Origin: Breznakia blatticola
GTDB lineage: Bacteria > Bacillota_I > Bacilli_A > Erysipelotrichales > Erysipelotrichaceae
Direction of reading: 5' to 3'
Assembly (NCBI RefSeq): GCF_004365815.1
Contig: NZ_SODD01000014.1
Span: forward strand, 1-32,000
Length of the DNA: 32,000 nucleotides
The translations under genes and the position numbers were made by a program. The notes under the pieces are model-generated. The model did no database searches. It saw nothing but the letters and a program-made list of their open reading frames with translations, and had not been told where the DNA came from. Positions 29,926 through 31,364 of this stretch are shown here, piece after piece. The stretch's first letter is position 1; the number at the start of each line of letters is the position of its first letter.

Positions 29926-30502
29926 TGCTTACCTCTCTTTCCGCTTTCGCTTGCTTTAATCTTTCTATTTCTAAACGGACCGTTTCAAGATCCTCTTGTT
30001 TGATTTGCTTTTCTTTTGCATATGACATTTCTAATAATAGAAATGCTAACAACAATACGCTTATGGTTCCAAGTGGATGTTTCATCACATTGATAATCGC
30101 TCCAACAAAAGGAATACTACAAATGACTTTCCCTTTGATGTTTTCCTTTGTGATTGGATCATCAACCATTCCATTTGCATCACCTTTGGTGTAAATATTA
30201 TCTTCATCTATACTTACAACACGATGAACGATAAGTTCATACCCATCTTGATACACCACAATATCATCAATAGATACATTTGTTGTATCTTTCACGATAA
30301 TAAGATCATCTTTTTCTAATGCAGGTTGCATACTTCCCGATAACACAACGGATGCACCATAACCAAATGGAGTTGGTAGTGCATTACCTACGATGGACTG
30401 TGCATTATATAAATACACAGTAAATCCAATATAGATTCCAACAATGATAAGAATTGGTGTACGCAAAATGCGTGATTTTCTACTCTTCATCATGTTCTCC
30501 AT
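29909..30502 (-). CDS. sipW: SipW-like (ER/archaeal-type) signal peptidase I
   Basis: Motifs SGSMQP, HRV and GDAN, with N- and C-terminal TM helices. The true start may be ATG 30493 or 30490 (GGAGA SD). Has a charged C-terminal tail of about 40 aa. Confidence 0.9.
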   Translation of the reverse strand: MENMMKSRKSRILRTPILIIVGIYIGFTVYLYNAQSIVGNALPTPFGYGASVVLSGSMQPALEKDDLIIVKDTTNVSIDDIVVYQDGYELIVHRVVSIDEDNIYTKGDANGMVDDPITKENIKGKVICSIPFVGAIINVMKHPLGTISVLLLAFLLLEMSYAKEKQIKQEDLETVRLEIERLKQAKAEREVSSELDT

Positions 30503-31364
30503 CTTTCTTCTTTTTCCAAATTATGCATGCTACAAGTACAACAGCAATTCCACCTAACATAAGATAATACATTACATTTGTTGTATCTCCGGTGTTTGGA
30601 TTACGTAGTCCACCATCCGCAATTTGTGAATTTTCATCACTCCATGCATAGGTACGAATCACGACAGTTACAGTTAAGTCTTCATCGACTGCACGATTGC
30701 CTAAATAGGTATCAAAGTCATCATCACCTTGTTCAAATGGCCATTCCCAAAACAATGTGTAATACGCATAGTTTTTAGCATACAGACTAGCTTCATCACG
30801 AATAAAACTGCCCTTTGCTAGACGCTCCATTCCTTGATCACTACCTAAAAGATAGTCACCAGTATAACTTTTCATCGCAATGTTTACAGGGAAATCAACA
30901 TCACTTGGACTTGTTAGTACTTCACAGGTCATTTGATATTTTACAGTAGTTGATCCATTATTTTTGATATGAAAGGTGTACTCATTTTCTGTTCCTGGAG
31001 CGATTACTTCTTCTCCATTTGAACTTACTACGCTTACTTTTCCATCATCATTTGTATATGTAAGCTTAAAAATTTCAACATCTGTTTCTGTTGACCAAGT
31101 TTGTTTATTATCAAAGGTTTCAATCCCCTCTGTATTTTGTTGTGTTCCTACCCCATTGGCATTGTTTGTAATTGCAATAGATGAACTACCGCCTTCATCG
31201 TTTGTTTCATCAGATTCCACTGCAACTGATGGAAACAATGAAATTGCTTCTTTTTCAATCTGTGATATGTAAATAAGATGATTTCCTATCACACTTACTG
31301 TAATTGCAACACAGATGAAAAGCACACATACCAATAGCCAAATCTTTCCTTTTCTATTTTGCAT
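30480..31364 (-). CDS. TasA-like domain protein with N-terminal TM/signal anchor and C-terminal NPNTG sorting-signal-like tail
   Basis: AGGAG SD. IAPGTENEYTFHIKNNGSTTVKY and DTYLGN...LTVTVVIRT parallel TasA motifs. The C-terminus is LRNPNTGDTTNV + MYYLMLGGIAVVLVACIIW + KKKKDGEHDEE. Confidence 0.8.
   Translation of the reverse strand: MQNRKGKIWLLVCVLFICVAITVSVIGNHLIYISQIEKEAISLFPSVAVESDETNDEGGSSSIAITNNANGVGTQQNTEGIETFDNKQTWSTETDVEIFKLTYTNDDGKVSVVSSNGEEVIAPGTENEYTFHIKNNGSTTVKYQMTCEVLTSPSDVDFPVNIAMKSYTGDYLLGSDQGMERLAKGSFIRDEASLYAKNYAYYTLFWEWPFEQGDDDFDTYLGNRAVDEDLTVTVVIRTYAWSDENSQIADGGLRNPNTGDTTNVMYYLMLGGIAVVLVACIIWKKKKDGEHDEE

Follow-up and report, generated by a model that had tools for sequence, protein, structure and literature searches.

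The Locus

Gene F lies near one end of a 32,000-nucleotide stretch of DNA from Breznakia blatticola (contig NZ_SODD01000014.1, positions 1 to 32,000; the whole stretch is referred to here as the window). It encodes a protein of 294 amino acids with a sortase-type sorting signal at its C-terminus, and it is found in a cassette of genes for secreted proteins and for signal peptidases of the SipW type. The cassette genes follow one another on one strand in the order sipW1 (215 amino acids), T1 (361), F (294), sipW2 (193-197), T2 (314) and a Breznakia-specific membrane protein, as seen on a second Breznakia contig, L001, from a sister strain. The open reading frame proposed for F from the sequence alone (the sequence-only reading) is exact to the letter, its C-terminal sequence included. 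It is on the minus strand, and the frame on the opposite (plus) strand is riddled with stops. An identical NCBI entry is named 'MULTISPECIES: LPXTG cell wall anchor domain-containing protein [Breznakia]'. For T1 and T2, the NCBI label is 'hypothetical protein'. The parts of F are as follows.

30480..31364, minus strand: F, 294 amino acids
31275..31343, minus strand: hydrophobic N-terminal segment (F residues 8-30), preceded by basic MQNRKGK
30630..31112, minus strand: conserved beta-sandwich core of F, residues ~85-245, with an APGT.N.Y.F...N.G hairpin and a W.W.FE..DD.DT.LGN motif
30588..30602, minus strand: NPNTG pentapeptide, residues 255-259, followed by D260; predicted sortase motif, with cleavage expected at T258|G259
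30504..30572, minus strand: hydrophobic helix MYYLMLGGIAVVLVACIIW (residues 265-283) and KKKK (residues 284-287); retention part of the sorting signal

Between the hydrophobic N-terminal segment and the C-terminal sorting signal of this protein are a linker and a beta-sandwich core, in that order. In an AlphaFold2 model of F (mean predicted local distance difference test score, pLDDT, of 77, and about 85-96 in the core) there is an N-terminal helix over residues 2-39, a disordered linker at residues 50-81, a beta-sandwich of ~160 residues with one helix, and a C-terminal helix over residues 264-293.

Relatives of F occur mostly in herbivore and insect guts, Breznakia included. A word-indexed search gave 183 matches, and an exhaustive search with the F-family profile gave 495 clusters (50% identity) at E<=1e-30. 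When a representative library was searched exhaustively, the best 150 matches listed were close members of the F family only, with no bridge to annotated families. The family alignment described below contains 49 sequences, and motif statistics were collected over 261 representatives. Invariant core residues in the alignment are F99, Y103, A122, P123, G124, T125, F131, N135, P159, G174, Y202, W206, W208, E211, D215, D218 and T219. No lysine of the core is invariant or near-invariant.

The C-terminal Sorting Signal

The C-terminus of F reads ...GGLRNPNTGDTTNV-MYYLMLGGIAVVLVACIIW-KKKKDGEHDEE. It has the tripartite layout of a cell-wall sorting signal: NPNTG, a spacer of five residues, 19 hydrophobic residues, KKKK and a short acidic end. 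The sequence-only reading had suggested a signal of the sortase type, and both the profile match and the conservation of the motif across the family bear this out. The TIGR01167 LPXTG_anchor model matches residues 256-287 of F with 17.6 bits (curated cut-off 15.9). The Pfam model Gram_pos_anchor (PF00746) gives a sub-threshold score, 14.1 for a cut-off of 20, and finds matches at E<=5 in 17 of 49 family members.

Among the 49 aligned sequences, G259 never varies, and P256, T258 and D260 each reach 90% conservation or more; for the helix after them, only the character is conserved, not the sequence. Over the 261 representatives, P-x-T-G is present in 216, with D as the next residue in 186 of these, and most of the other 45 retain x-x-T-G-D. 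In the median layout, a spacer of 4 residues leads to 22 hydrophobic residues and 4 basic ones. The family consensus is x-P-(K/Q/N)-T-G-D, and the commonest pentapeptides are PPQTG, PPNTG, PPKTG and SPKTG. Position 1 varies most (P in 70, I in 31, S in 28, A in 19, V in 18 and N in 12 of the 216 sequences). For example, the orthologous gene in the same cassette of a second Breznakia species has SPSTGD. It is highly probable that the C-terminus acts as a functional sorting signal across the family.

Other proteins encoded nearby end in similar signals. On the second Breznakia contig, two very large LRR_5 surface proteins (L001:1-3415 and L001:3625-7713) are found upstream of the cassette. Their C-termini, ...TVNSGDTTDV followed by a transmembrane (TM) helix and KRSKK, and ...SIETGDTSSA followed by a TM helix and R.K, are non-canonical and lack proline. 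The FctA-domain proteins that flank the cassette in a related metagenome-assembled genome (MAG) end in IAPDTGD, a TM helix and KKR. Because the LRR_5 and FctA-domain neighbors carry such ends, candidate substrates with an x-x-x-[TS]-G-D motif cluster at these loci. A search for further sorting-signal proteins, suggested along with the first description of F, has two adjoining Breznakia proteins to offer, with motifs looser than NPxTG. The sorting enzyme of Breznakia, to judge by these termini, may tolerate a motif as loose as x-x-x-[TS]-G-D.

The Likely Sortase Class

A set of 87 related loci (80 GTDB genomes and 7 contigs) was scanned. In 15 of them, a sortase gene is found on the same strand directly upstream of sipW1 or directly downstream of the cassette. 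Three representatives of these linked sortases were scored with the class B model TIGR03064 and gave 147, 177 and 204 bits (cut-off 153.75). The class B sortase of Clostridioides difficile, SrtB, is known to cleave (S/P)PxTG between T and G, including PPKTGD and SPKTGD, and cleavage is enhanced by the native residues that follow the motif, GDS or GDN (PMC4155245). The same enzyme does not cut LPETG, NPQTN or NVQTG in vitro (PMC4155245).

A class B enzyme is supported for the F family because its consensus is the motif cleaved by SrtB and because TIGR03064 sortases are linked to its loci. Judged by its residues, the NPNTG of F is best read as a variant of the clostridial class B motif (S/P)PxTG. 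Class B had also been proposed in the sequence-only reading, by a different route. There, NPxTG was compared with the NPQTN and NPKTG motifs of Isd-type substrates. That argument fails, with N at position 1 in only 12 of 216 family members and SPSTGD in the other Breznakia species. An Isd-type NPxTN reading was rejected, as position 1 varies across the family.

Paralogues of F

The proteins encoded on either side of F are secreted paralogues of each other. T1 and T2 match in BLASTP (9e-16) and in hhalign (99.5% probability), and T3, a third member present in many of the related loci, matches T2 with 92.9%. The F family matches T1 in hhalign with 99.3% probability (E 6e-21) over residues 106-228, from the APGT hairpin to the W.W.F...D..DT.LGN motif. 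On this sequence relationship, F is regarded as a paralogue of T1, its SipW-associated secreted neighbor, which fits a wall-anchored fiber subunit.

T1, T2 and T3 have in common a signal peptide that ends ...SG(T/L)(F/Y)A(K/R)Y, and in T1 and T2 a conserved ARVAKWG strand comes next. The signal peptide of T1, for example, ends ...ISGTFAKYTT, followed by ARVAKWGV. Neither T1 nor T2 has a sorting signal. The T1 family comprises 1,686 matches and has no Pfam domain. Its invariant residues are K39 (in GTFAKY, the predicted SipW cleavage site), E122, D294 and Q359; K54 (in ARVAKWG) and D361 (in the C-terminal TVTQ.D) are near-invariant. By analogy with BsaA of Clostridium perfringens, these residues could form an intermolecular isopeptide 'lock', or they could supply a nucleophile for a sortase.

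The Cassette

The other genes of the cassette are listed here. Two of them are given, wholly or in part, by their positions on contig L001.

L001:8067-8714, beyond the window, two genes upstream of F: sipW1; TIGR02228 E 1.4e-32, Bacillus SipW model below equivalog cut-off
31468..32000, minus strand (full gene L001:8812-9897): 3' part of T1, a 361-amino-acid secreted protein; the gene continues past the end of the window
29909..30502, minus strand: sipW2, an archaeal/endoplasmic reticulum (ER)-type signal peptidase I; TIGR02228 E 2.6e-20, SipW model 67 bits, below equivalog cut-off
28981..29925, minus strand: T2, a 314-amino-acid secreted paralogue of T1; its 5' end overlaps the 3' end of sipW2; signal ...ITSGVLGRYVT, followed by ARVALWG; no match in Pfam or NCBIfam
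28081..28725, minus strand: polytopic membrane protein, 214 amino acids; last gene before a terminator-like site

All 64 loci with complete flanks, out of the 87 examined, have the cassette genes on one strand in the order W-T-F-W-T. F and a SipW occur together in 87 of 87, and F is strictly between T1 and sipW2/T2 in every locus with complete flanks. Hosts of the related loci are mostly Oscillospiraceae, Lachnospiraceae, Ruminococcus and unclassified Clostridia MAGs from herbivore guts. In Breznakia the series is closed by the membrane protein, which is not conserved with the cassette outside this genus (3 of 87 loci). A terminator-like hairpin at 28021-28006 (minus strand) comes after its gene and is the sole terminator-like site on that strand. 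The membrane protein has 214 amino acids in the window and 246 in the sister strain (L001:12545-13285); T2 of the two strains differs by one residue (I/S).

The cassette is extended by two more genes in 42-46 of the 87 loci, often with a sortase gene after them. The first encodes a secreted protein of 1,400-2,200 amino acids (e.g., L043:12188-17634 and L007:12348-19144) with a conserved C-terminal ...TQ(Q/K)N.WSWR...WLNG.S and an ordinary AxA signal peptide. It has no sorting signal, and no similarity of these giant proteins to the T or F proteins was detected. The second, T3, has ~180 amino acids and a SipW-style signal; it contains a KNTGN hairpin and carries a VFAEAIQ motif at the C-terminus. 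The giant protein may be a tip adhesin and T3 a minor subunit. The Breznakia cassette contains neither.

Two SipW Peptidases

The presence of two signal peptidases is a constant feature of the cassette. Both W1 and W2 retain the catalytic motifs S.SM.P and HR[VIL], that is, the Ser and His, and both end in a charged, coiled-coil-like tail. They are separate ancient orthogroups. For 60 loci, the best non-self match of every peptidase (120 of 120) was in its own class, with median scores of 236 and 172 bits within the W1 and W2 classes and 60 bits between them. This divergence suggests, at the level of sequence, two substrate specificities in one operon.

The second peptidase gene is closely tied to F. 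Its reading frame starts inside F, with an overlap of 23 nucleotides (11 with the NCBI start), and the median F-W2 gap over 64 loci is -15.5 nucleotides. F itself begins differently from T1 and T2. Its N-terminal hydrophobic segment of ~23 residues, within the AlphaFold2 helix, lacks the GTFAKY motif and has no recognisable cleavage motif; the family consensus here is L..CV..S...L..R...Y (49-sequence alignment). The segment may be a signal peptide or a signal anchor, possibly a substrate of SipW2. The tight coupling of F to sipW2, together with the separate W2 orthogroup, suggests that SipW2 handles this distinct signal.

Comparison with Known Systems

In B. subtilis the order tapA-sipW-tasA resembles F-sipW2-T2, and the statement in the sequence-only reading that F occupies the position of TapA is correct in this sense. 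An archaeal/ER-type peptidase dedicated to neighboring secreted beta-rich proteins is a further likeness, as are signal peptides that end in G-T-aromatic-A (GGTWA in TasA). In contrast to that operon, which has one sipW, there are two SipW paralogues here. F, T1, T2 and T3 have no detectable homology to TasA, and no TapA model in NCBIfam matches F, T1 or T2. TapA, unlike F, is not known to carry a sortase signal.

A closer parallel in layout is found in C. perfringens. In most strains sipW-bsaA is followed by an LPXTG-bearing paralogue, BsaB, with srtB adjacent, and its anchoring role has been called speculative (PMC11580942; PMC7395162). BsaA subunits are joined by intermolecular isopeptide bonds through an N-E-K triad (PMC7395162; PMC11580942). 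In strain 13, where the LPXTG copy is missing, BsaA polymers were unaffected by deletion of srtB (PMC7395162; PMC11580942). The Breznakia cassette shares with the Bsa operon a sipW, a major subunit, an LPXTG-type paralogue and, in some relatives, an adjoining sortase named as class B. The likeness drawn between F and BsaB is one of layout, and the Bsa operon has a single sipW.

Bacterial AbpX loci (e.g., Clostridium amylolyticum A0A1M6GRE1) also combine a fiber subunit, a signal peptidase I and an LPXTG anchor, often with a sortase (bioRxiv 10.64898/2026.01.04.697558). For these, AlphaFold 3 predicts that the LPXTG anchor joins the fiber by donor-strand complementation (bioRxiv 10.64898/2026.01.04.697558). 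The likeness to the F loci is one of gene content. The peptidase, however, is described there as having 10 TM helices and is SipW-like with 193-215 amino acids here. It had been remarked of F that no TasA family member with a sorting signal was known to have been characterised. This stands as far as experiment goes; the idea itself is already in print as a prediction, in preprints dated 2024-2026, for both C. perfringens and AbpX.

The substrates of C. difficile SrtB offer the precedent that matters for the motif. The P/S/I-P-K/Q/N-T-G-D of the F family corresponds to PPKTGD and SPKTGD, and the linked sortases are of the TIGR03064 class. F of Breznakia differs in having N at position 1, and its neighbors are looser (VNSGD, IETGD). 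Isd-type substrates (NPQTN in IsdC of S. aureus, NPKTG in B. anthracis) share N-P at the start and T at position 4. Unlike them, the F family does not conserve the N (12 of 216), F has G at position 5 with D after it, and there is no NEAT or Isd domain and no heme-uptake context. Basal pilins of sortase-assembled Gram-positive pili are similar, given the role proposed for F, in being minor subunits whose sorting signal fixes a fiber to peptidoglycan. In contrast to such pili, the shaft candidates T1 and T2 lack a sorting signal and a pilin motif and would polymerise without a sortase, and no class C sortase is present.

What is distinctive here is the combination of subunit families outside curated models, a fixed five-gene core, two divergent SipW peptidases, an anchor with its own type of N-terminal signal, and a wide spread in gut Firmicutes.

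A Proposed Mechanism and Its Alternatives

The most probable interpretation (roughly 0.55) is that F is the sortase-sorted, wall-anchored member of a set of three paralogues (T1, F and T2) served by two dedicated SipW peptidases, and that it forms the base of a fiber. In this scheme T1, F and T2 would be exported by Sec. A SipW would mature T1 and T2 (and T3 where present) at ...SGTFA|KY..., which would expose the N-terminal ARVAKWGV strand. Extracellular polymerisation of T1 and T2 would follow, with beta-strand complementation of the kind found in TasA, BsaA and Tafi fibers as its most likely basis. F, predicted to have the core fold of T1 without a donor strand, would be kept in the membrane by its C-terminal helix until a clostridial-type class B sortase cut it at T258|G259 and transferred it to peptidoglycan. 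Its N-terminal signal would probably be processed by the translationally coupled SipW2. Through contact with the T subunits, F would become the covalently fixed, cell-proximal end of the fiber.

A more specific proposal can be made only tentatively. The cassette would represent an uncharacterised class of fiber with a sortase-independent shaft (T1 and T2, and in many loci T3 and the tip-like protein of 1,400-2,200 amino acids), with F fixed covalently by a class B sortase and SipW2 reserved for the anchor. Since T1, T2 and F are recognised by neither curated models nor solved structures, they may be a new family of fiber-subunit folds or an extremely diverged branch of TasA/Tafi.

Among SipW-dependent (TasA-type) fibers, anchoring through TapA is non-covalent, BsaA of strain 13 is reported to be held by the membrane, and anchoring by an LPXTG paralogue is so far a prediction of recent preprints. 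The F family offers a widespread test case, with its fixed five-gene core, a clear sorting signal and, in some genomes, a sortase in the same operon. If the proposal is right, a single appendage unites anchoring by a sortase with polymerisation that needs none, thousands of 'hypothetical' proteins of gut Firmicutes acquire a function, and the surface structures they form are likely to be relevant to adhesion and biofilm formation in gut communities.

A number of results weigh against this interpretation. Several of them concern TasA, to which F had been likened on sequence alone; its description as a TasA-like domain gains no support from Pfam, NCBIfam, hhalign or Foldseek. The Pfam/NCBIfam models for Peptidase_M73 (PF12389), TasA/CalY and TapA do not match F, T1 or T2 at E<=1-5, and PF12389 was matched by one of 30 T3 proteins, at E 0.1. 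In hhalign comparisons with a 32-sequence TasA alignment, whose query was verified against 8AUR and 5OF1, the probabilities were 1.5% for F, 2.0% for T1 and 1.3% for T2. PDB sequence searches with the four family profiles found nothing relevant. In Foldseek, TasA is not among the top 50 matches listed for the F model, which are of a generic jelly-roll or beta-sandwich kind (CBM6, Eph ligand-binding domain, PPC, GOLD and CPE C-terminal domain) with E of 5e-4 to 7e-3 and query-length-normalised TM-scores <=0.25. For the T1 model (pLDDT 84), none of the top 50 listed PDB matches is below E 0.49. The best link to a TasA-like pilus is Natrinema Tafi (9p0a_C), matched to the T1 model at E 1.5 and probability 0.05. 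Because F and T1 have no significant similarity to TasA or to solved fiber subunits, polymerisation by strand exchange rests on analogy. The sortase adds further difficulties. It is linked to the cassette in only 15 of 87 loci; none was found in the 32-kb window with a TLxTC regular expression and a class B sortase hidden Markov model, and none within ±10 kb on four Breznakia contigs. A literature search found no report of a Breznakia sortase. Finally, the N-terminal segment of F, with no recognisable cleavage motif, may remain uncleaved.

A chain of homology TasA-T3-T2-T1-F was also tried and was rejected as proof, since it breaks at its first step, where a probability of 78% with the signal peptide included falls to 0.15% on the mature regions; the other links, T3-T2, T2-T1 and T1-F, hold (92.9%, 99.5% and 99.3%). 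A hairpin in F that resembles TasA (APGT..Y.F.I.NNG, with the pattern PG...F.L.N.G) is also matched, below threshold, by DUF7507, a generic surface-domain model. Membership in DUF7507 was rejected in turn, as its matches cover a hairpin of 30-40 residues only, and the hairpin is read as a generic surface-domain motif. The resemblance to TasA is contextual and functional, an analogy of dedicated SipW, gene order, signal-peptide style and beta-sandwich fold. Sequences across the wider TasA/BsaA family have diverged to an extreme degree (PMC11580942), so there may be a very remote homology to TasA.

Three other explanations can be set beside the proposed fiber base. F might stand alone on the surface, anchored by a sortase but outside any T1/T2 polymer (as an adhesin or matrix-binding protein, for instance), with T1 and T2 as soluble or loosely attached matrix proteins and the three linked by common ancestry and regulation. 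The sorting signal of F is robust and would serve such a protein equally, the polymerisation of T1, T2 and F is based on analogy, F lacks the N-terminal ARVAKWGV strand that is conserved in T1 and T2, and Foldseek groups its core with generic binding-type beta-sandwiches (CBM6, Eph ligand-binding, CPE C-terminal). This is nevertheless unlikely for a protein that is always encoded between T1 and sipW2/T2 in complete loci and has a core homologous to that of T1, the more so as an LPXTG paralogue is the predicted fiber anchor in analogous sipW loci. Another alternative concerns the helix at the C-terminus. T-G-D is almost invariant over the 261 representatives and the helix sequence is not, which argues for selection on a recognition motif and against a helix that serves as a permanent membrane anchor in Breznakia, with F maybe held at both ends and NPNTGD a relic or in some other role. 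The motif is kept in two Breznakia species (NPNTGD and SPSTGD), and the adjoining large surface proteins, with their x-x-x-[TS]-G-D, TM helix and basic residues, suggest that a sorting enzyme is encoded in the Breznakia genome. A permanent anchor would agree with the lack of a sortase in the window and in the examined flanks on Breznakia contigs, with the N-terminal helix of F, which has no clear cleavage site, and with BsaA oligomers of C. perfringens strain 13, reported to be anchored in the membrane and not in peptidoglycan (PMC11580942). On balance it is improbable.

It had also been suggested that a sortase might polymerise F. As a pilin-like building block, F would be joined to other F molecules, or its Thr258 would be joined to a lysine of T1 (e.g., K39 or K54). 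There are precedents, in that some class B sortases polymerise pilins, such as that of S. pyogenes mentioned in a passage of PMC4155245. The mature N-terminus of T1 does offer the invariant K39 and the near-invariant K54, and in one relative the cassette is flanked by proteins with FctA-type pilin domains. T1 and T2, however, have no sorting signal, and no pilin motif was identified. Homopolymerisation of F by a sortase was rejected, since a core with no invariant or near-invariant lysine provides no nucleophile; the pilin-like arrangement as a whole is very improbable.

Other Features of the Window

The window has a G+C content of 34%, and the surroundings of the cassette are ordinary chromosome, with msrAB, glycogen genes, dnaB, gdpP, mfd and pth. 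A few other genes are of some interest.

7723-8850, minus strand: IS605-family OrfB/TnpB gene (OrfB_IS605, Cas12f1-like TNB and HTH_OrfB_IS605 domains), between the glycogen genes and a phosphoglucomutase gene
8862-9263, minus strand: open reading frame of 133 amino acids directly upstream of the OrfB/TnpB gene, without annotation
13428-14681, minus strand: Schlafen AlbA_2 / HATPase_c_4 protein, 417 amino acids, a few genes from dnaB
27282-27917, minus strand: CatA-like O-acetyltransferase (Pfam CAT E 1e-29), between the cassette and pth/mfd

The architecture of the Schlafen AlbA_2 protein is frequent in defense and regulatory genes. The CatA-like protein scores 124 where the NCBIfam cut-offs for true chloramphenicol acetyltransferases require 300, and it is thus well under them.

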